Shown: piece after piece, positions 611 through 44,574 of the stretch
Layout of the letters: each line of letters opens with the position of its first letter
How positions within the stretch are numbered: position 1 is the first letter of the stretch
Virus record (IMG/VR): IMGVR_UViG_3300045988_174371
Span: 1 to 64,000 of that record
Length of the DNA stretch: 64,000 bases
Strand: one strand, 5' to 3'
From: a virus
Notes under the pieces: generated by a model
What the model was told of the DNA's origin: nothing
The model's database searches: none
Seen by the model: the letters and a program-made list of their open reading frames with translations, nothing else
Made by a program: the position numbers and the translations under genes

Positions 611-1324
611 CTACTCGTCGGGGGTAACTACGCCTTTCAGGTACCTGATTAGCGTGGAGCGGCTAGTGCCAATCCGTCGGGCAACCTCAGGCTTTGATAA
701 GCCTTCCGCAAGTAAGCGTCGAGCCTCCGCAATATCCTCCGTGGTGAGGCTCTTAGGTTTCTTGTATGCGCCACGCGCTTTAGCTTCTTCAACGCCGCGC
801 CTGCTACGCTTAGGTAGTTTCGCTACCTCCGCCTCATATGCGGCAACTCGCCGCAAAAGGTCAGACACAAGAGTAGAGACAAGCTCATGCGTGGAGTCGT
901 CCTCAGTAGACCTGTCCATCGGGTATGAGCCAGAGGATGTAGCAGGGGTGCTAAGGACACCCGGTTCGTCAATATAGATAACGATAACCTGCTTCTCCTT
1001 CAAGGAATCCATCAGCTCTGCCACATGCCGCATATCGCGTCCCAGCCTCTCCACAGTGGGTGTGACAAGTACGTCGTGCGGTTGGAGGCAGTCAAGAACC
1101 TGCGCCAACCCATCACGCTCCTTATAGGTGGTGATGATGTTTGGGGTGTCCACCGTAACAAACTCTGCCCTATCAAAGGTTACAGTGCGGTAGACCTCAT
1201 CGCCAAAGTTTTCCCTGACCCACTCATGAATCCTCCACACCTGAGGCTCAGGGTTTTGCTCCGCAGAAGAAGTCCGCACATAACCATAGATGGTCTTAGT
1301 GGGCAAAAGCTTCCTGAGTGCCAT
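611..1324 (-). CDS. small serine recombinase (resolvase/invertase type)
   Basis: 237 aa. N-terminal YGYVRTSSAEQ and VERLGRD motifs; C-terminal HTH SKPEVARRIGTSRSTLIRYL. SD GAAAGGA before the ATG. Confidence 0.85.
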   Translation of the reverse strand: MALRKLLPTKTIYGYVRTSSAEQNPEPQVWRIHEWVRENFGDEVYRTVTFDRAEFVTVDTPNIITTYKERDGLAQVLDCLQPHDVLVTPTVERLGRDMRHVAELMDSLKEKQVIVIYIDEPGVLSTPATSSGSYPMDRSTEDDSTHELVSTLVSDLLRRVAAYEAEVAKLPKRSRRGVEEAKARGAYKKPKSLTTEDIAEARRLLAEGLSKPEVARRIGTSRSTLIRYLKGVVTPDE

Positions 1325-8938: not shown

Positions 8939-10762
8939 CTAAGCGTCAGAATCCTCAGAAGACGCATCCTTACCCTCAGCAGGAGCCTCAACGGTCTTAT
9001 CCTGAGCCTTACGCATCTTCCTCATGAAGAACAGCAGACCACCGATACCAGCCGCCGCAATAGCCGCAAAGACAGCGCCCAGAACGGGGTTACTGCCCTG
9101 CTCATGACCAGTCTTAGCCTCAACAGGCTTAGCAGGCTCGCTCGGCTTCACGCCAGGCTCCGAAGGCTTCTCAACAGCAGGTTCAGACGGCGTTACCGAA
9201 GGAACCGGAGTGGTAGCCTCCTGAGTAGGAGCAGGCGGAACGGACTCGGTGGGAGTGGGCTCCGCCGAAGGAGTTACAACAGGCTCAGACGGAGTGGGCT
9301 CAGGGGTTACGTCGGGCGTAGGGGTGGGCGCGGGAGTCTCTACAGGAGCCGCCACAGGCTTCACATAAACAGAGTAGTCGGTTACGTTTTCCTTAGTGGA
9401 GTGCCAGGAGTAGTAGTTGGCGGAGCCACCACCACCGAAGCCCTGCTTGCCCACATCACCAAAGTTCGCGTCACCGTAGAAGCTCTTGTACGTCTCATCG
9501 CCACAAGTACCACCCTTAGTGTAGGTCTGGATGTAGCTCTCGTATGGCTTAGCGTCATACAGGGTAGCTTCCACACCCTCAGGGAGTACGGGGGCGACAC
9601 GTTCCTGCGCGCCATTAGTGAACAGCTTCAAGAAGTCGGGGGCAATATCCTCAGAAAGCCCAGAGCTCTTGAAGATAATCGGAGAAGCCGCCAGTTGGTC
9701 ACAGGGTGCCACACCAATAACATCCATAGGCTCAATCAGAACCTCAGTGAGCTTGAAGTCAGCGCCAGTAACCTCACCAGGAGTACCGGATGCGGCTACG
9801 TCTTCCACTGAGAAAGTTTTAGTCTCACCAGGAGCAATCTCAACATTGGGGAGGGCAATCTTCTTGCCGTCACGGGTGATACTTAGGTGAATCTTCTGGT
9901 CATCAACACCATTACCCTCGGCGGTGGTGGCGGCAATCTCTGACTTGTTGGTGTAGGTGAAGCTTACCTTACCTGCATCATTTGCAGAAACTTCGGTGGG
10001 GTTCTCGCGAGTGGTGCCCAGCTCACCAATAGTGGTGGAGGCGCTAAAGGTGCCAGCCTGAACGGTCGGCTTGTCAGAGTCGATAGTGATGCGCTGGGTG
10101 ACAGTCTTACCACCCTCAACTTCCACAGAGTAGAGGAAGGTGAGGTTCTGCTTATTGTCATCTGGACGCGAAATGGTGATAGTACCGTCAGCGTTAGCCG
10201 TAATCTTGGAGCCATTGTTGCTACTCAAGCCGGAGCCAAACTGAAGGGTACCACTGCGCGGGGTAGATGCCTCATCGGAAGCGTACAGAGGTAGGTCTAC
10301 GCGAGTAGCATCATTGCCCAGGGTGCCGATACCTACAAGGAGCGTGCCCGGAACTACAGTGTTACCCTTACCAACTAGGTCTGCGACATTGATGGTGTAG
10401 TTCGTGGTGCTGTCACCACTGAACGGCGAAATCTTATCCTTCTTAAGAGTCCAGTTCACATAGTTCTGAACAGTCTCCTTGGGTGCAGATGCGGTAAAGT
10501 CCTTGGCGGTCAGGTTCACGGTGGACTCGGTGCGCGCCTGAGTGGTTGCGGCGGCAGTTGCTTCTGCGGCATGTGCCACGTTGAGCATTGCTACGCCACC
10601 TGCGCCACCACCGAGGGTGAGGGCGGTAACCATGAGTGCGCCTGCTACCTTGCGCTTGGCGTTATGCTTTGCGCTTGCAAAGGTTGCGGGGGTGTTTTCA
10701 GTCTTAGGGGACAAAGTTTTCTCCTGTACTGGTTGCGGGTTGGTTGTTCTGCTGTCCACCAT
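8939..10762 (-). CDS. secreted surface protein with Pro/Thr/Glu-rich stalk and C-terminal membrane anchor
   Basis: 607 aa. Signal-like KRKVAGALMVTALTLGGGAGGVAMLNVAHA; PTPTPDVTPEPTPSEP stalk; EAKTG followed by a hydrophobic helix and RKMRK. Confidence 0.8.
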   Translation of the reverse strand: MVDSRTTNPQPVQEKTLSPKTENTPATFASAKHNAKRKVAGALMVTALTLGGGAGGVAMLNVAHAAEATAAATTQARTESTVNLTAKDFTASAPKETVQNYVNWTLKKDKISPFSGDSTTNYTINVADLVGKGNTVVPGTLLVGIGTLGNDATRVDLPLYASDEASTPRSGTLQFGSGLSSNNGSKITANADGTITISRPDDNKQNLTFLYSVEVEGGKTVTQRITIDSDKPTVQAGTFSASTTIGELGTTRENPTEVSANDAGKVSFTYTNKSEIAATTAEGNGVDDQKIHLSITRDGKKIALPNVEIAPGETKTFSVEDVAASGTPGEVTGADFKLTEVLIEPMDVIGVAPCDQLAASPIIFKSSGLSEDIAPDFLKLFTNGAQERVAPVLPEGVEATLYDAKPYESYIQTYTKGGTCGDETYKSFYGDANFGDVGKQGFGGGGSANYYSWHSTKENVTDYSVYVKPVAAPVETPAPTPTPDVTPEPTPSEPVVTPSAEPTPTESVPPAPTQEATTPVPSVTPSEPAVEKPSEPGVKPSEPAKPVEAKTGHEQGSNPVLGAVFAAIAAAGIGGLLFFMRKMRKAQDKTVEAPAEGKDASSEDSDA

Positions 10763-10882
10763 ATGCTTGGTGGTGGCTTCCAGAGGGGTCAGCGTAGCGC
10801 TCTGCGGTACGTGCCTTTGGCTGGTTGCCGGTCAGCGTGCCCTTTGTGGGAGGCTTTACGTCTCTTGTGTGGGCTTGTGGTT

Positions 10883-10893
10883 ATTGTAGCATG
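10883..10893 (-). promoter_or_regulatory. extended -10 promoter
   Basis: rc reads CATGCTACAAT (TGcTACAAT). Confidence 0.55.
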
Positions 10894-10950
10894 TGGTGCC
10901 GTTGTGGTGCCACATGCTTTTTGTGGGCGCGGCAAAAAGCGTCCTTCAAT

Positions 10951-10959
10951 TGCTAGTAT
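10951..10959 (+). promoter_or_regulatory. candidate plus-strand extended -10 promoter (TGCTAGTAT)
   Basis: Same 9-mer as the tRNA-Leu(TAG) promoter at 54879-54887; faces into the ORF-free region. Confidence 0.4.
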
Positions 10960-10965
10960 ATCGTG

Positions 10966-12027
10966 TTGCTGGTCGTGTGCATCTTGCTTCAGGGGTTGCT
11001 TGAGGGAGATTCCGCTCACATTGAAGGTTCTTTGCAGTGCTGATTGAAGGTTCTAGTTGGCGGTTTTTTGGGCATAAAAAAGAGGGACACCTTCAGCAAT
11101 GGTTCCTACTGGCAGTCCGCGTTGCATGGCAGTCTGCTCAGTATGCACTTGGAACCATCCCGTCACGGTAGCTCATTGCGTAGAGCTGTGTGACGGTGGT
11201 GCTGGTGAGCATACAGGTTCATTCCTAAGGTAGGTAAGATGTGTAATTGTGTACGCCTAGCACTTCAGTGCAATGAAGCCGCTTCATATTTCCCCGCCGA
11301 TATAGCGTTCCTCAAGGGTGCTCTGCCCCTGAGGAGTCAGCGGATGACATTCGAAGACGTAACCATCTTATCTACTTACCGGGTACTCGTTGAAGAACCT
11401 TCATCGTGTTCCCGGCGGTGAACCCAACCAGCTCCTACTGGAAGGTGTTCCCTAACATTCATCGAACCATAATTCCGGGGTGTGAACATGGAAGTGTGTG
11501 TTCCCACGGAGTTACAGTTGTCAATTGATGAATGTCGCTATTCTGCTGTGATGCTCACTGGGTGCTAAGCACCTGATGTGAACATCGTATGTTCAGCTTG
11601 TCCCTTCTACAAAACGGCATAGCAATCATGGAACTAGCCGCCACAGCCTTTATTCCGTACAAAGCGGAGGCTGTGGAGAGTGGAACTTCGGTGAACCAGA
11701 TAAGGTGCGGCAAGGGTTGCCCACTACGGCGCTACTAAAGCAACTCTAACACTTGCCTTAGTATGCCCCTCTCTTATCCGCGTGTACCTACGGGTAGAGG
11801 GGTGCTGTAGCATTGTAACCTTGCGGTGCACCTCAGAGCTTTAAAGAGCCTTACTCCCGGATGCGCCTTTATGCTTTGCTGGGTGCTGACTGCAATCAGT
11901 ACCCAGCTTCACATTCTGGCGAATGAGCGGCAGTGAAACAGGTGAAAGCTGTTTTACTGCCCGGTTTGGGGTTCTAAAGTTCACGTGGGACGGTAGCATC
12001 TCGCCCCGCGCTGACAAAGTATATTCA
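10966..12027. ncRNA. ~1-kb ORF-free, hairpin-dense region (candidate large structured RNA and/or tnpB omega-RNA)
   Basis: Only one ORF of 60 aa or more in six frames. Perfect or near-perfect stems at 11160-11196, 11561-11573, 11579-11595, 11641-11676, 11764-11804, 11879-11906 and 11931-11959. Direct repeat attgaaggttct at 11020 and 11043. Confidence 0.4.
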
Positions 12028-13203
12028 TCAGCGCCAATTCATACGGGACGTTAGCCGCGCAATGCCACGCTTACGGATGTTCATAGCGGCAGTACGGTCA
12101 TCGTTAGACCGGAAGCCACATGCACAACTGTAAAGGTGGAGATGGTGGTTTCTGTTCCGTTTCTCTATCATACCACACTTAGGGCAGGTAGTGCTAGTCG
12201 AAACAGTGGAAACATGGACGAAAATGTGTCCTCGCTTCTGTGATTCCTCTCTCAACGCTCGGCTGAACTTGTCGAAGACGACGGTGGGAAGCTTGCCCAT
12301 GTCGTCGCGGCTGAAGCGTTCGCGGAGGTGAACGGATGCCTGGATGTCCTCCAATGCGAATACAGTGTGAGGCTCTGCGCCGTCAAGGATTGCCTTAACG
12401 GTCTTGTCGATGCCTTCCTGGAGGTGTGCCTGCATTTCGTCTGAGAGTGCCTTGAGGCGCTTGCGGGAGCTTCGAGTGTTCTTAGCCTTGAGGCGTTCAC
12501 GACGTGCGCTGTACTGCTCCATGTAGGTCTGGAGCGGGGTGTTCCATGCGCGGTAGAACTTGCTTTCCTTGCCGTCATAGGAGACTGCGAGGAACCGGGT
12601 TCCCAGGTCGATACCGACTACCTTGTTCGTTACGGTTGCGATGTCGTACTTCAGGAGCCAGCCTACCGCCTTATCGTAGGATAGGGTTGCCTGGTTCATG
12701 TTCTTGGTGTACGGGTAACCTGCGGGGAGGTTCAACCATTCGGCAAGGAACTGTTCGGTGTCATGGGTTCCGTCTGCTAGGTCTGAGCGGTAGAGGCGGA
12801 TTTTGTATGCGCCGTTGCCCAGGCGGTAGAAGTCGTAGTCGCTCCTGTAGCGCACGGGGATTCGGTCGAGGTTATAGGTGCGCGGCTTCTTGATGGACTT
12901 GTTCTGCACGTGGTCTGCTTTGTAGTCCTGGATGACGGTGTAGATGGCACGGTCGCGGATGCCAGGATAGATGCTTTCCAGCTTTGCGGTGTCACCCTTG
13001 ATGCGGGTCATGATTTTCTTCGCGCTGACGGTGTTCAGCTGGAAGGATACCTTGCTCGCAATGTTGCATACGCGCAGGTATGCGTTGTAGTACTCTAGCA
13101 GTCTATCCTGCGCATCCCAGTCGTTCACCTTCAGGTGTACGTATACGGTAAGCCTGTTGGCTTTCACGTTAGGAAGATTAGTCATCTTCGGGAGGTCACT
13201 CAT
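12028..13203 (-). CDS. tnpB: TnpB (RNA-guided RuvC nuclease, IS605 OrfB family)
   Basis: RuvC motifs VGIDLG, FALEDI and NDDRTAAMNI; zinc ribbon CPKCG...CACG. Start at the ATG at 13203 (MSDLPKM) with SD AAGGAAA. Confidence 0.9.
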   Translation of the reverse strand: MSDLPKMTNLPNVKANRLTVYVHLKVNDWDAQDRLLEYYNAYLRVCNIASKVSFQLNTVSAKKIMTRIKGDTAKLESIYPGIRDRAIYTVIQDYKADHVQNKSIKKPRTYNLDRIPVRYRSDYDFYRLGNGAYKIRLYRSDLADGTHDTEQFLAEWLNLPAGYPYTKNMNQATLSYDKAVGWLLKYDIATVTNKVVGIDLGTRFLAVSYDGKESKFYRAWNTPLQTYMEQYSARRERLKAKNTRSSRKRLKALSDEMQAHLQEGIDKTVKAILDGAEPHTVFALEDIQASVHLRERFSRDDMGKLPTVVFDKFSRALREESQKRGHIFVHVSTVSTSTTCPKCGMIEKRNRNHHLHLYSCACGFRSNDDRTAAMNIRKRGIARLTSRMNWR

Positions 13204-13306
13204 GTTGATTTCCTTCTTTAAAGGGGGGTATTGTTGGTTCCCTGCCCTTCCGCTTGGTGGAGGGCTTGGGAGGTGTGCAAGGATTTCCCTGCGACCCAAC
13301 AGTTAT

Positions 13307-13317
13307 ACTGTATCACA
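13307..13317 (-). promoter_or_regulatory. extended -10 promoter upstream of tnpB
   Basis: rc reads TGTGATACAGT. Confidence 0.6.
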
Positions 13318-13437
13318 CATTTCGGTGTATGTGAAACTGGTGTGCTGTGGATGGTGATAACCGCGCCTGACTTGAATACATTCAGTCGATAAGCGGCTAC
13401 CACCACACACGTTATCTACCCTAACACCTTTGCCTTA

Positions 13438-14007
13438 CTAGGCGATGTCTTGGGCTCTCACCCAACGTGCCCGCGCATCTGCAAACATCTCATCCCACTG
13501 TGCACGACTTTTCCTCAACCGCCAAGCAACACTGTTATTGCGCTCCATAAGAAGCTTATCTACAGTGTCAGAGTATGCGGGAATGTACTTCGGCTCGCTA
13601 GAGACCGCCTTCCCATGCTCCCACGTGAAAACAAGCCGCCCAAGAACCCTTCCAGAACTGGAGGTTTCAACCCAGATTACACCTTGCGCATCCTGATAGA
13701 CCTTGCAGTGGCGCTCCTTAAATGGCTCATCATGGTAGTAGGTTGGTGCACCACCCTGCATGATGTATTCACGGAGCCATAGGTTATAAGCGTCCAGAGG
13801 ATTCATGTCGCTCAGCTCAAGCTTCCTAAGCGCCCGCCTAAGGTCTCTATTGTCCATTTCCGACACGGACGTTGCAGAGCGGACAGTTCTAACCATATCT
13901 ATCTTTGTTGTCGGAGTACCGCTGTTGGCAATGGAAGGAATGATAGTGGCGGTTCGCCAGGCGGATACCTGCTTTTCGCGGGGGTTGCGGGTGGGGCTAC
14001 TGGGCAT
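13438..14007 (-). CDS. hypothetical protein, SAWR / AYNLWL family
   Basis: 189 aa; motifs QVSAWRT, AYNLWLREYIMQGG and IPAYSDTVDK; SD GAAAGGAG. Confidence 0.75.
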   Translation of the reverse strand: MPSSPTRNPREKQVSAWRTATIIPSIANSGTPTTKIDMVRTVRSATSVSEMDNRDLRRALRKLELSDMNPLDAYNLWLREYIMQGGAPTYYHDEPFKERHCKVYQDAQGVIWVETSSSGRVLGRLVFTWEHGKAVSSEPKYIPAYSDTVDKLLMERNNSVAWRLRKSRAQWDEMFADARARWVRAQDIA

Positions 14008-14069
14008 ATGCTTAGCTCCTTTCGGCGTAGCATGTTCTTTGGTGGCATGTTAGATGCTTAGTCGTAGTT

Positions 14070-14672
14070 TCAAAATGAGTAGCCGCGCTCATTTAGAAAC
14101 CTTTCCACTGCCCGCCTTTCAAATGGTTCAAGGCTATCTATTCCATAGGTGAGCGCCTGTATTGCGGACTGGTGGGCGTCTAGGTCATTACGAAGCCGCT
14201 CACCATCGGCGCTGTCCTCTTGCATGATGCTCTTGTCGATGGTGTTCGTGTAGGCGGGAATATTGCTCTTGACTGCAAGAGCTCTGGAGCCGTCCCATTT
14301 GAAGATGTAGCCTACCCGCCCGGCACGGTACTCAACGCACACCTCGCCGTCATCCATGACTCTTCTCATGAACTGCTCTTCGGGTAGCTCGCAGTTGTGG
14401 TAGTCGGTCGGGGTTCCGCCTTGCCTGATGTAATCGTGGAGCCACTGGTTGTACAGCTCCTCAGCGCTCATAAGGTGGCGCTTAGCTTTAGGGGAAGCGA
14501 ATACCATGCGAAGGCGCTTCCCCGCATTGGAGACATGCCTCGTGAGTAGTAGCGCTGGCGATTGAGTGGGCGCGGCTGGGTTGCTGGTGGCGGCAAGCCG
14601 ATGCTCAGGCTCGCTATGGTCATGGCTTCGCCAGGCGGACACCTGCCGTGCTACCTTCTTGGGTGAAGTCAT
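14070..14672 (-). CDS. hypothetical protein, SAWR / AYNLWL family
   Basis: 200 aa; motifs QVSAWRS, LYNQWLHDYIRQGG and IPAYTNTIDK; SD AGGAG. Confidence 0.75.
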   Translation of the reverse strand: MTSPKKVARQVSAWRSHDHSEPEHRLAATSNPAAPTQSPALLLTRHVSNAGKRLRMVFASPKAKRHLMSAEELYNQWLHDYIRQGGTPTDYHNCELPEEQFMRRVMDDGEVCVEYRAGRVGYIFKWDGSRALAVKSNIPAYTNTIDKSIMQEDSADGERLRNDLDAHQSAIQALTYGIDSLEPFERRAVERFLNERGYSF

Positions 14673-14728
14673 ATTATTACTCCTGTGGCTCTGTCGGGTG
14701 GTCGGGGGGGGGGTACCCCTACTTCATT

Positions 14729-14739
14729 ACTCTAGCATG
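14729..14739 (-). promoter_or_regulatory. extended -10 promoter (TGCTAGAGT)
   Basis: rc reads CATGCTAGAGT; a G10 run at 14704-14713 lies in the 5' UTR. Confidence 0.5.
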
Positions 14740-14829
14740 TTTTGGTGGGGTATGGGTGTGGCGACTGCGCCAGTTTGTGATGCTGGGTTGCAGTCGCCAC
14801 ATGGGGGTCTTATTGAGGGTATTTCGCAT

Positions 14830-15414
14830 CTAGGCGAGAGTGATAATCACGCGGCGCTTACCCTTCTTAGTCCAGCCGTATAGCTTGTTGTGTGATGTGC
14901 CCTGTAGGAACCTAAAGGCATGTTTTTTAGCGTCGTATTCCTTATTTAGGATGAAGGTCATTGACTGAGCTCCGCACATGCCGTCTGGGAAGTTGAGCTC
15001 GTGAGGACTCTTTACGTAAACGACTGTGGAGGGGAGCCTGCGGTCAGGGAATACGTCTGACCAGTCCCTCATTTCTGCGTGAGTTAAGTAGTTGCGGGTG
15101 CACCCCTTGGATAGCTCACGTTCGATGTCCTCTTGGATACAGTGCATACGCCTAGTATAAGCTTCCCTCTGGGATTCTAAATCCTTCTTCACGCTGTCGG
15201 CGCGTAGTTCTTGAAGGTGTGGGCATGGTTCCACATCGATAGTGGCTTTGCCTATGCCGGGGTATGGCGGCTGGGGCTTCTGTGGGGTTTCCTGGGAAGT
15301 GGAAGTGTTGCGATTGTTGCTGGGTGTGGCGGGCTGGTGGGAGCTGGTGGTATCGATAGGTGGGGTGGTGTAGGCGGTTCGCCAACCGGCTACGTACTTG
15401 TTCTTGCTGGGCAT
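14830..15414 (-). CDS. hypothetical protein, SHNxLYGW family
   Basis: 194 aa; motifs YVAGWRT and SHNKLYGWTKKGKRRV; SD AAGGAGA. Confidence 0.75.
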   Translation of the reverse strand: MPSKNKYVAGWRTAYTTPPIDTTSSHQPATPSNNRNTSTSQETPQKPQPPYPGIGKATIDVEPCPHLQELRADSVKKDLESQREAYTRRMHCIQEDIERELSKGCTRNYLTHAEMRDWSDVFPDRRLPSTVVYVKSPHELNFPDGMCGAQSMTFILNKEYDAKKHAFRFLQGTSHNKLYGWTKKGKRRVIITLA

Positions 15415-43309: not shown

Positions 43310-43750
43310 ATGGCTCAGGCAACCCAGGCACTCACTATCGAAGGTCAGCTCCACATGGACGAAGCTCAGAAGAAGATTGTGAAGCTTCCCAAGTATGGCG
43401 AACCAACCGGCAATCACTACCAGCACCTCATCAACTTCCTGCAAGGTGAACACACCAAGAAGACCAACACCCCCTACCAGATGTACGGAAAGTTCAACAT
43501 CTGGAGCAACAGTGAAGAAGGCGAAGAACCCTACGAGATTGGCTACGAAGTAGAGTTCACCTCTGACGCAGAATGCGAGAAGCCGACCGGCATCCGAATC
43601 TTCGAATACCGCGAAGACGACGAAGAAGGTTGCGAGAGCAACAAGGAACTTCTCGCCCTGAATGGTCGAAAGTTCAAGGTTACCAGTGCAATGCCCTTCA
43701 GCTCCGCAGGTGACTACCTGGCAGAAACGACTATCGCCCTCATCGACTAA
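43310..43750 (+). CDS. hypothetical acidic protein
   Basis: Start at the ATG at 43310 after SD AAGGAGAG, downstream of the promoter. Confidence 0.75.
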   Translation: MAQATQALTIEGQLHMDEAQKKIVKLPKYGEPTGNHYQHLINFLQGEHTKKTNTPYQMYGKFNIWSNSEEGEEPYEIGYEVEFTSDAECEKPTGIRIFEYREDDEEGCESNKELLALNGRKFKVTSAMPFSSAGDYLAETTIALID

Positions 43751-44055
43751 GCACAGTAAGGTAAGGCGGGGCATCTCCAACTAAGGAGGTGTCCCGCCTT
43801 ACCATGCCCTGCAACCCCTGAGCCTGCCATGAGCGCCACTTTTGGCGGATGTGAGGTAAATATTCCACCGTCTCGCTTACCGTTATGGTAGGGGCGTTCC
43901 GCTTCTCGCGCAGTATTCTTCGCGGTGTTAAGGTCATGGTCAAGCTTGTACCCACAATGCCCGCAGTGGAACATGCGGTCACTCAACCCCTGCTTCTCAG
44001 TTGCGCGCTCCTCACAGTTACTACAGGTCTGAGATGACGAATTGAAATGCGTCAA
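43747..44055 (-). pseudogene. TnpB C-terminal remnant (5'-truncated and frameshifted)
   Basis: Retains SSQTCSNCE...FHCGHCGYKLDHDLNTAKN (zinc ribbon plus RuvC-III). The expected NILRE continuation is in another frame, and the N-terminal ~300 aa are absent. Confidence 0.7.
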
Positions 44056-44139
44056 TACTAAATAGGTGGGAAGATAGTTCTGTCAAGCCGCTACAAACTG
44101 GCGGCACACATTCATGCTATCAACATCAAGGAGACCCCT

Positions 44140-44574
44140 ATGCAGAACGACTACCAGCCGGGCGAAGACCTCACCATCACCATTGCGCACATCGAGCACA
44201 ACATCAAGGTTCTTACCGTCATTCATAAGAAGGCGCAGGCATTGCTCGACAAGCCCATTGAGGCGCTATATGCCATGACCGATGCCTTTGAGGAAGGGGA
44301 GCCGGTAAACATGCCGATGAACCTCAAGGCTGTTACCCGCATTCAGAAAGTAGATGCTATCTTGAGGGATGCGCGGGCGGTTATTGAGGATGCGCGGCTA
44401 TCCCTTGCTATTATGGCGTGCGGCGGCATTAACCTAGAGTCTTTCAACTCTGACAGTATGGTGATGCGAGATGCTGTGGCGCTTGAGGTTACTACAGGGA
44501 AGGCAGTGGAGGAGCTTTCTGTTCGCTGGTTGGAGCACTCCACTCACCTAGATACCGTAGGTGAGGAGTTCTAA
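44140..44574 (+). CDS. hypothetical protein
   Basis: 144 aa; SD AAGGAGA. Confidence 0.7.
   Translation: MQNDYQPGEDLTITIAHIEHNIKVLTVIHKKAQALLDKPIEALYAMTDAFEEGEPVNMPMNLKAVTRIQKVDAILRDARAVIEDARLSLAIMACGGINLESFNSDSMVMRDAVALEVTTGKAVEELSVRWLEHSTHLDTVGEEF

Follow-up and report, generated by a model that had tools for sequence, protein, structure and literature searches.

An intact TnpB gene and a large structured RNA at a fixed site in a family of large phage-like elements

What does an intact TnpB do where nothing around it behaves like a transposon? The question is raised by a 64,000-nucleotide (nt) stretch of viral DNA (positions 1 to 64,000 of IMG/VR record IMGVR_UViG_3300045988_174371; hereafter the window), which carries on its minus strand a gene, tnpB, encoding a TnpB protein of 391 amino acids (aa). 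TnpB genes in phages and exapted TnpBs are already known (PMC12607003, PMC10705468, PMC13565253). TnpB has mostly been studied either as cargo of insertion sequences (IS) or as a dead regulator (TldR); here it is intact, lacks signs of transposition and is selected at a fixed site. An original prediction had taken the gene for a regular component of its element, an RNA-guided nuclease serving homing, competition or defence, rather than a passenger IS.

The minus-strand frame spans 12028-13299, and the ATG at 13203 was used as the working start. A Shine-Dalgarno sequence (SD; AAGAAGGA) lies directly 5′ of this ATG, and both are invariant among sister genomes. A longer, TTG-initiated reading was rejected, as its 32 upstream codons carry frame-breaking indels of 1 nt and 9 nt in sister genomes. 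The predicted RuvC motifs (VGIDLG, FALEDI, SNDDRTAAMNI) and zinc ribbon (CPKC...CAC) are present, and residues D199, E285, D368/D369, C340, C343, C360 and C362 were invariant in a 12-sequence alignment of the protein with 11 relatives, drawn from its clade and from more distant groups. Searches with hidden Markov models, which had been proposed for placing the protein, succeeded in part: the C-terminal zinc-ribbon domain TNB, which is inserted in RuvC (Pfam PF07282), passed its cut-off (5e-12), whereas OrfB_IS605 of Pfam (26.4 bits, cut-off 30.5) and guided_TnpB of NCBIfam (73 bits, cut-off 100) stayed below theirs, suggesting a divergent member of the family. An AlphaFold2 model (predicted local distance difference test score, pLDDT, 80.6) compared with known structures by Foldseek matched Cas12f, TnpB and Fanzor over its full length with probability 1.0 and E-values of 1e-16 to 1e-10, at template-modelling (TM) scores of only ~0.38. 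The best matches were Cas12f (7.5e-16), followed by TnpB 8h1j (1.9e-13) and ISDra2 8exa (7e-10), and the RuvC-I and RuvC-III segments align with the solved CnCas12f1 chain. As modelled, the protein has the Cas12f/TnpB fold (WED-REC-RuvC), which places it in the OMEGA class of RNA-guided RuvC nucleases (the name abbreviates obligate mobile element-guided activity). Judged from its sequence, it is probably active as a nuclease.

The gene was found at one and the same site throughout its close relatives. The exact protein is encoded on 19 contigs, and in all six contexts listed for it the gene lies between the same small-gene cluster and a gene for a ~600-aa surface protein; contexts listed through the neighbouring 329-aa protein placed it there in 10 of 10, giving an identical site in 16 of 16 places from the two look-ups. 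A sister lineage carries a 59%-identical TnpB at this site, together with an RNA ligase and a 329-aa protein of 68% and 78% identity, respectively. A third lineage differs: its TnpB relatives (43-45% identical) lie ~6 kb off, on the far side of the homologs of the 607- and 329-aa genes, and the site used in the window holds only a 260-nt intergenic region. Reciprocally, no TnpB was found in the window at the site of the third lineage. The occupation of two sites across the element group, with the 45% relatives elsewhere, implies that the clade has moved at least once within the group and was mobile in the past. Third-lineage tnpB is split by a frameshift in many contigs (L021-L024, 7535-8687: overlapping ORFs, open reading frames, of 170 aa and 228 aa), and an identical frameshifted allele is present on at least 24 contigs.

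In the window lineage, tnpB is under strong purifying selection. Comparison of the related loci L007 and L020 gave 72 synonymous and 15 non-synonymous changes, a ratio of non-synonymous to synonymous rates (dN/dS) of ~0.05, and comparison of the window with L001 gave 16 synonymous changes and no non-synonymous ones. The synonymous divergence (dS) of tnpB, 0.01-0.12, is like that of core genes and contrasts with values of 0.7-0.8 in the small paralogs upstream and the 607-aa gene downstream, so that the gene sits between two mosaic hot spots (dS to 0.8). Between L007 and L020 a recombination breakpoint falls inside the ORF itself, near L007 8748, with ~90% identity in the 5′ two-thirds and 98-100% in the 3′ third and the RNA that follows.

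Beyond the element group, relatives are scarce. A word-indexed search returned eight full-length clusters at ≥43% identity and one relative that is both truncated and frameshifted. All of them lie on large contigs of this type, and beyond them identity dropped to ≤38%. An exhaustive HMMER scan of 1.84 billion cluster representatives gave only 5 matches at E≤1e-30; one full-length relative among these representatives exceeded 40% identity, and the next were ~30% identical. No close copy outside this element group was found among 5.8 billion clusters. By these searches the clade is isolated.

The absence of a nearby tnpA and of obvious IS ends, also part of the original prediction, held up. No Y1 transposase was found near tnpB in the window, and the neighbouring genes are without Pfam match; the sole recombinase of the window is a serine resolvase with an HTH_7 (helix-turn-helix, HTH) domain at 611-1324 (-), 10.7 kb away. 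In sister genomes this resolvase directly precedes a different, HTH-bearing TnpB of 520 aa, forming an IS607-like pair, and the corresponding partner of the window's resolvase would fall just outside the window start. A tblastn search with the TnpB clade found one locus only in the window. Neither discrete left and right ends nor copies at other sites with unrelated flanks were recognised for tnpB, which is present once in the window and at an identical site in related contigs. The predicted second, decayed copy at 43747-44055 is indeed a TnpB fragment, but not a duplicate of this gene. The fragment, 43747-44145 (-), contains a TNB domain (2.5e-10, 43747-44055) and RuvC-III; the 43747-44055 part is 44% identical to the C-terminus of the 520-aa IS607-type family and gave no alignment with the 391-aa clade. 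By its sequence it is the remnant of a separate acquisition from a different TnpB family.

Transcription signals tie the gene to its element. tnpB sits behind the element's own promoter class: its extended -10 motif (TGTGATACAGT, 13307-13317 (-)) recurs with at most one mismatch at 14 sites in the window, against 0.8 expected, and the consensus TGTGRTACANT occurs 18 times, nearly always on the coding strand 40-110 nt 5′ of an SD and ATG and often with a TTGc -35 element. The proposed wiring into the local promoter system is thereby confirmed. A second promoter type (CGMTATACTRGC), unlike TGTGRTACANT, precedes the 607-aa gene and its homologs (window 10952-10963 (-); L013 ~640); in the window it stands at 10963-10952, after the T-run that ends the RNA described below. 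Between the upstream gene and the tnpB promoter lies a hairpin, 13347-13406 (-), in which A-to-G and C-to-U changes in genomes with cassette allele B (see below) keep the pairing, with G-U pairs confined to the sense strand; this may be a structured RNA or what is left of an old left end.

Given the fixed site, the 59%-identical syntenic ortholog, a dN/dS of ~0.05, the element promoter and the lack of a transposase, ends or a second copy, tnpB is very probably a vertically inherited, selected and nuclease-competent gene that has a cognate RNA, rather than an IS of recent arrival. The claim of a regular gene thus stands.

The cognate RNA lies in a stretch of 1.27 kb that separates tnpB from the following gene and contains no convincing ORF. 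Folding compared with shuffled sequences gave z-scores of -4.1 for 11820-12110 and -7.1 for 10763-11700. Across the three lineages, changes on both sides that keep the pairing were counted at 5 of 11 positions in helix P1, 1 of 6 in P2, 6 of 6 in P3 and 7 of 8 in hairpin H1, and G-U pairs in these helices occur on the tnpB-sense strand only. The counts were made on strands set by hand, which leans them towards structure; MAFFT shifted the window lineage's P3 strands by one column. The long-range helix P3 encloses a domain whose length is 106-300 nt, depending on the lineage, and appears elsewhere as CAGGCT/AGCCTG, CAGGT/ACCTG or CAGGC/GCCTG. Further on, the pairing of conserved block a with block b was seen in the consensus fold of the third lineage. 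Because P1-P3 and H1 covary across three lineages, sequence comparison has shown the existence of a structured cognate RNA, the predicted omega-RNA, overlapping the 3′ end of tnpB (Table 1). Rfam returned no family for it even at E≤1, group I and II introns and the IS605-orfB motifs included.

Two further properties set this RNA apart. Inside the P3-closed domain is a variable cassette with two alleles, A (121 nt) and B (112 nt), which are unrelated in sequence and both common (10 A to 12 B among the loci compared); at the cassette position 12 of 50 nt are different between L007 and L020, a hypervariable patch within an otherwise ~99% identical segment. Downstream, 11074-11505 forms a further structured RNA of ~430-450 nt with nested long-range helices, which has no Rfam match and is absent in the 45% lineage.

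Table 1. Features of the tnpB module, in order of transcription (window coordinates).
Feature	Position	Strand	Basis
Promoter: TTCACA, 17-nt spacer, TG-extended -10 (TGTGATACAGT; TG-TACAGT)	13307..13335	-	Element-wide motif
5′ leader, 103 nt, with SD AAGAAGGA; non-coding	13204..13306	-	Frame-breaking indels in sister genomes
tnpB ORF, 391 aa, RuvC triad and zinc ribbon intact	12028..13203	-	ORF call, profiles, alignment, fold, dN/dS
Helix P1, 11-bp hairpin across the stop codon	12008..12034	-	Both strands altered at 5 of 11 positions across lineages
Helix P2, GGGGCG-loop-CGTCCC; GGGGTG/CACCCC in other lineages (GGGGYG/CRYCCC)	11987..12007	-	Lineage comparison
P3-closed domain	11691..11984	-	GTGAACT 11978-11984 with GGTTCAC 11691-11697
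Internal variable cassette closed by AGGTG/CACCT; allele A, 121 nt, here	11708..11828	-	Locus comparison
Block a (GAAGTTCCACTC)	11678..11689	-	Common to all three lineages; pairs with block b in consensus fold
Hairpin H1, between blocks a and b	11641..11676	-	Stem sequence differs, pairing kept in every lineage
Block b (AGAAGGGACAAGC)	11596..11608	-	Collinear block, three lineages
Block c (GCAGAATAGCGAC)	11534..11546	-	Last sequence common with relatives at the other genomic site
Putative guide position (ATTCATCAATTGACAACTGT...)	11506..11533	-	Inferred; follows block c
Further conserved structured RNA, T-run end CCCTCTTTTTTAT at 11074-11086	11074..11505	-	Shared by the 59% lineage only

Where the scaffold ends determines where a guide would begin. 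Collinear blocks common to lineages with tnpB at different sites end at block c. For calibration we used the mobile relative P0111, which has different flanks in L028 and L030 and clear ends: its right end lies 163 nt past the stop codon, finishing GGTGAGTAATTGAC, and its left end ~150 nt upstream, with TTCATC before it; the terminal motif recurs in P0028. In such canonical mobile relatives the right-end motif GAGTAATTGAC is followed by insertion-specific flanks, and block c (GAATAGCGAC) resembles this terminus. Because homology stops at block c and block c resembles the canonical terminus, the 3′ end of the scaffold, an old right end, would be at 11534, ~490 nt past the stop codon as against 163 nt in the canonical relatives.

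The guide position would then be taken by the 28 nt that separate block c from the following conserved block (GGGAACAC). This segment has at least 6 alleles in ~19 genomes whose TnpBs are ≥98% identical, is the least constrained part of the RNA and is wholly different in the 59% lineage. Such lack of constraint fits a guide that corresponds to the local flank and argues against a fixed target in trans. Two other positions were considered and rejected as guides. The cassette start (11828 downward) was set aside because the AGGTG/CACCT stem lies inside the P3 domain and allele B opens with a 16-nt palindrome; this candidate had no other match in the window or IMG/VR. The sequence after block a (CCACAGCC...) was set aside because it coincides with the covarying hairpin H1 and because block a is paired with block b; it matched self loci only in metagenomes of the Joint Genome Institute (JGI) and nothing in GTDB.

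For the segment after block c, the current candidate, there was no match in the window, where up to 3 mismatches were allowed, and the 4 matches in GTDB equal chance expectation and fall in unrelated organisms. The guide of allele-B genomes had 5 IMG/VR matches in unrelated low-GC (guanine-plus-cytosine) contigs, none of which extended. Searches within the element cover the window, which is 64 kb of a 360-kb element. Compared as a whole with those compared loci that lack the module at this site, the RNA shared nothing of ≥15 nt except promoter motifs. An empty-site reconstruction from L013-type relatives failed, as the whole module is absent there and the flanks are alike only in promoter type. 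The original prediction had proposed a guide-target search; none of the candidates gave a target, and the roles in homing, competition or defence that it named remain candidates.

How, then, might a resident TnpB of this kind earn its place? With moderate confidence we propose that the immobilised TnpB-omega-RNA module is an RNA-guided homing or exclusion nuclease and a core gene of phage-like elements. The module would no longer transpose and would be inherited vertically with elements of ~300-375 kb. Transcription from the extended -10 promoter (13335-13307) would yield a transcript comprising the tnpB ORF and the long structured RNA, of which TnpB would bind and process the stretch from the ORF 3′ end to block c as its omega-RNA scaffold, with the following 16-24 nt (window 11533 downward) as guide. 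The resulting ribonucleoprotein, most likely an active RuvC double-strand DNA nuclease, would cut flank sequence that lies beside a transposon-associated motif (TAM) and has no scaffold in front of it, that is, related co-infecting genomes which lack the module or carry another allele at the locus. Repair from the TnpB-bearing genome would copy the module with its neighbours, resulting in homing or localised marker exclusion. A homing or exclusion role is favoured by the position between mosaic hot spots, the unconstrained, flank-type guide, the past movement of the clade and the degenerate copies elsewhere; two sites and frameshifted copies within one TnpB family are what the life cycle of a selfish element would leave. 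More tentatively, a nuclease-competent TnpB kept over long evolutionary times, with an RNA of ~0.5-1 kb (several times as large as the omega-RNAs of canonical relatives), a balanced two-allele cassette and a fast-changing guide might amount to a system of RNA-programmed competition or gene conversion between co-infecting elements.

Several points weigh against the homing or exclusion proposal. No target was found for any candidate guide in the 64-kb window, ~50 related loci, IMG/VR, JGI metagenomes or GTDB genomes, and no empty site among related genomes. In the third lineage the nucleotides that follow block c form one side of a covarying hairpin with a GAAA cap, which is odd for a guide, and the putative scaffold end was placed by the point at which homology is lost and by a weak similarity of motifs. 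Were the module fixed everywhere, a function in homing alone would be expected to decay, yet selection is strong. The element could be a phage or a plasmid; almost no gene of the window has a family match. Finally, to our knowledge, a scaffold of ~500-600 nt far exceeds any described omega-RNA.

The strong selection and the lack of an empty site could also be explained by a domesticated weapon with a fixed target in trans (the bacterial host, a rival phage or plasmid, or a host defence locus), in effect a one-spacer, proto-CRISPR-like effector. Such a weapon would suit a resident gene with its own promoter and terminator, in an element that has several other TnpB-type genes. A trans-acting guide should be conserved, however, and the guide segment is polymorphic and unconstrained (6 alleles), while GTDB genomes, IMG/VR and JGI contigs gave self loci and chance-level matches only; we consider this explanation unlikely.

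Less likely again is an RNA-centred or regulatory role, in which TnpB would be the binding, processing or repressor partner of the large RNA, in the manner of TldR or of RNA chaperones, with selection acting on something other than DNA cleavage. The folding z-score of -7 and the hairpins at the place expected for the guide speak for such a role, as does the amount of RNA beyond any plausible scaffold, although the extra 450 nt are missing from the 45% lineage. The ~960-nt RNA is also 98-100% identical between L007 and L020, above the 5′ two-thirds of the ORF; since the 3′ end of the ORF is near-identical as well, a recent exchange could instead account for this. Across the clade neither the RuvC triad nor the zinc ribbon varies, whereas TldR proteins have lost their catalytic residues (PMC10705468).

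That tnpB is an ordinary passenger, a non-autonomous TnpB-only element of the IS200/IS605 type, is already largely refuted and highly improbable. Most TnpB genes lack a neighbouring TnpA, the relatives at ~29% identity are mobile elements with clear ends, and the family occupies two sites in the element group. Against this, the site is the same in every genome, even in the lineage with the 59%-identical TnpB, and the gene is single-copy, has the element-consensus promoter and is without a close copy outside the group among 5.8 billion clusters. A decaying relic kept by linkage only, as the frameshifted relatives in another lineage and the different-family fragment in the window might suggest, is just as improbable given a dN/dS of ~0.05 and the retention of all catalytic residues.

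The host element is most likely a member of a family of ~300-375 kb phage-like elements; it is called phage-like because the genes of the window are otherwise almost without family matches. Positions 2028-23203 are 100% identical to L005, a locus on a 360,588-bp JGI metagenome contig. The family is known from the human mouth and gut: contigs related to the window, 200-375 kb long, were obtained from human metagenomes, with one record labelled human oral, and two relatives are in IMG/VR. The element has a GC content of ~52.5%, and the window encodes three tRNAs and RNA-ligase and polynucleotide-kinase-like genes. A DNA search of INPHARED phages gave no match, and a protein search gave only distant (27-32%) C-terminal matches. 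Hodor megaplasmids (PMC12934698) are like these elements in size and habitat, but were not equated with them, as their GC content is 44.6-47.1% compared with 52.5% here.

Both neighbourhoods of tnpB are variable. Upstream, three paralogous genes of ~190-200 aa (13438-15414 (-)) without family match share an N-terminal VSAWRT-type motif; this cluster is a mosaic hot spot, with dS to 0.8 and a copy number of 3 to 4. In L038 it is reduced, and a 524-aa TNB-domain protein is encoded immediately upstream of tnpB. Downstream, the product of the 607-aa gene (8939-10762 (-)) has a signal peptide, a weak Ig-like match and a Pro/Thr-rich linker and then, in succession, an EAKTG motif, hydrophobic residues and the tail RKMRK, an arrangement that resembles a cell-wall anchor of the sortase type; its sequence varies strongly among genomes (dS 0.8).

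What is new at this locus is the long-term synteny of an intact nuclease, the size and architecture of its RNA and the allelic cassette. The locus offers a natural test case for the role of a nuclease-active TnpB that no longer retains a transposon, with homing, exclusion of relatives and an RNA-centred role as candidates. If the more tentative reading above is true, the module would do with an RNA guide what homing endonucleases do in phages, and might mark a stage on the way from transposon TnpB to type V effectors that stand alone. Its large covarying RNA, which combines a conserved core (P1-P3, blocks a-c) with a cassette open to exchange and a putative guide position that is polymorphic, could show how an omega-RNA grows and exchanges guides on the way to CRISPR-type systems. 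The element group is widespread, human-associated and 300-375 kb in size, and a compact protein of 391 aa may be of practical interest if active.

Among known systems, the closest in its parts is the IS200/IS605 TnpB of the ISDra2 type with its omega-RNA, also called right-end element RNA (reRNA; PMC8612924, PMC10097598), which has the same fold, RuvC triad and zinc ribbon. There too the RNA runs from the 3′ end of the ORF downstream, and the guide is expected at the RNA 3′ end. Unlike ISDra2-type elements, the module described here has no TnpA and no left or right end, is present as a single copy at a long-fixed site and uses a promoter of its host element; its scaffold would extend ~490 nt past the stop codon rather than the 163 nt of the nearest canonical relatives, it contains a two-allele cassette, and its NCBIfam scores are below cut-off.

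In genomic setting it recalls the free-standing homing endonucleases SegF, SegB and Mob of T4-like phages, which carry out intronless homing and marker exclusion (PMC13565253). Like them, tnpB is a nuclease gene that stands alone: it has a promoter of its own and lies among conserved genes, at the edge of a region of mosaic exchange, in a phage-like genome of large size. In contrast to them, an RNA guide rather than the protein would confer specificity, and homing is a proposal; no related genome with an empty locus and a kept flank was found, L013-type relatives lacking both module and flank.

The best structural matches, Cas12f/type V-U and the miniature type V effectors of phages, are likewise compact RNA-guided nucleases and are common in huge phages (PMC12607003, PMC11748809). 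Type V CRISPR-Cas differs in its RNA source: here no array is present, with no repeats found in 10700-13450, and the RNA is one long molecule joined to the mRNA. Finally, TldR proteins, TnpB-derived RNA-guided transcription factors of which some are phage-encoded (PMC10705468, PMC13418256), provide a precedent for an exapted, resident TnpB with a conserved guide RNA in phage contexts. In TldR, RuvC activity was lost and the guide is conserved against a promoter, whereas in the clade described here the catalytic residues are invariant and the guide segment is polymorphic.

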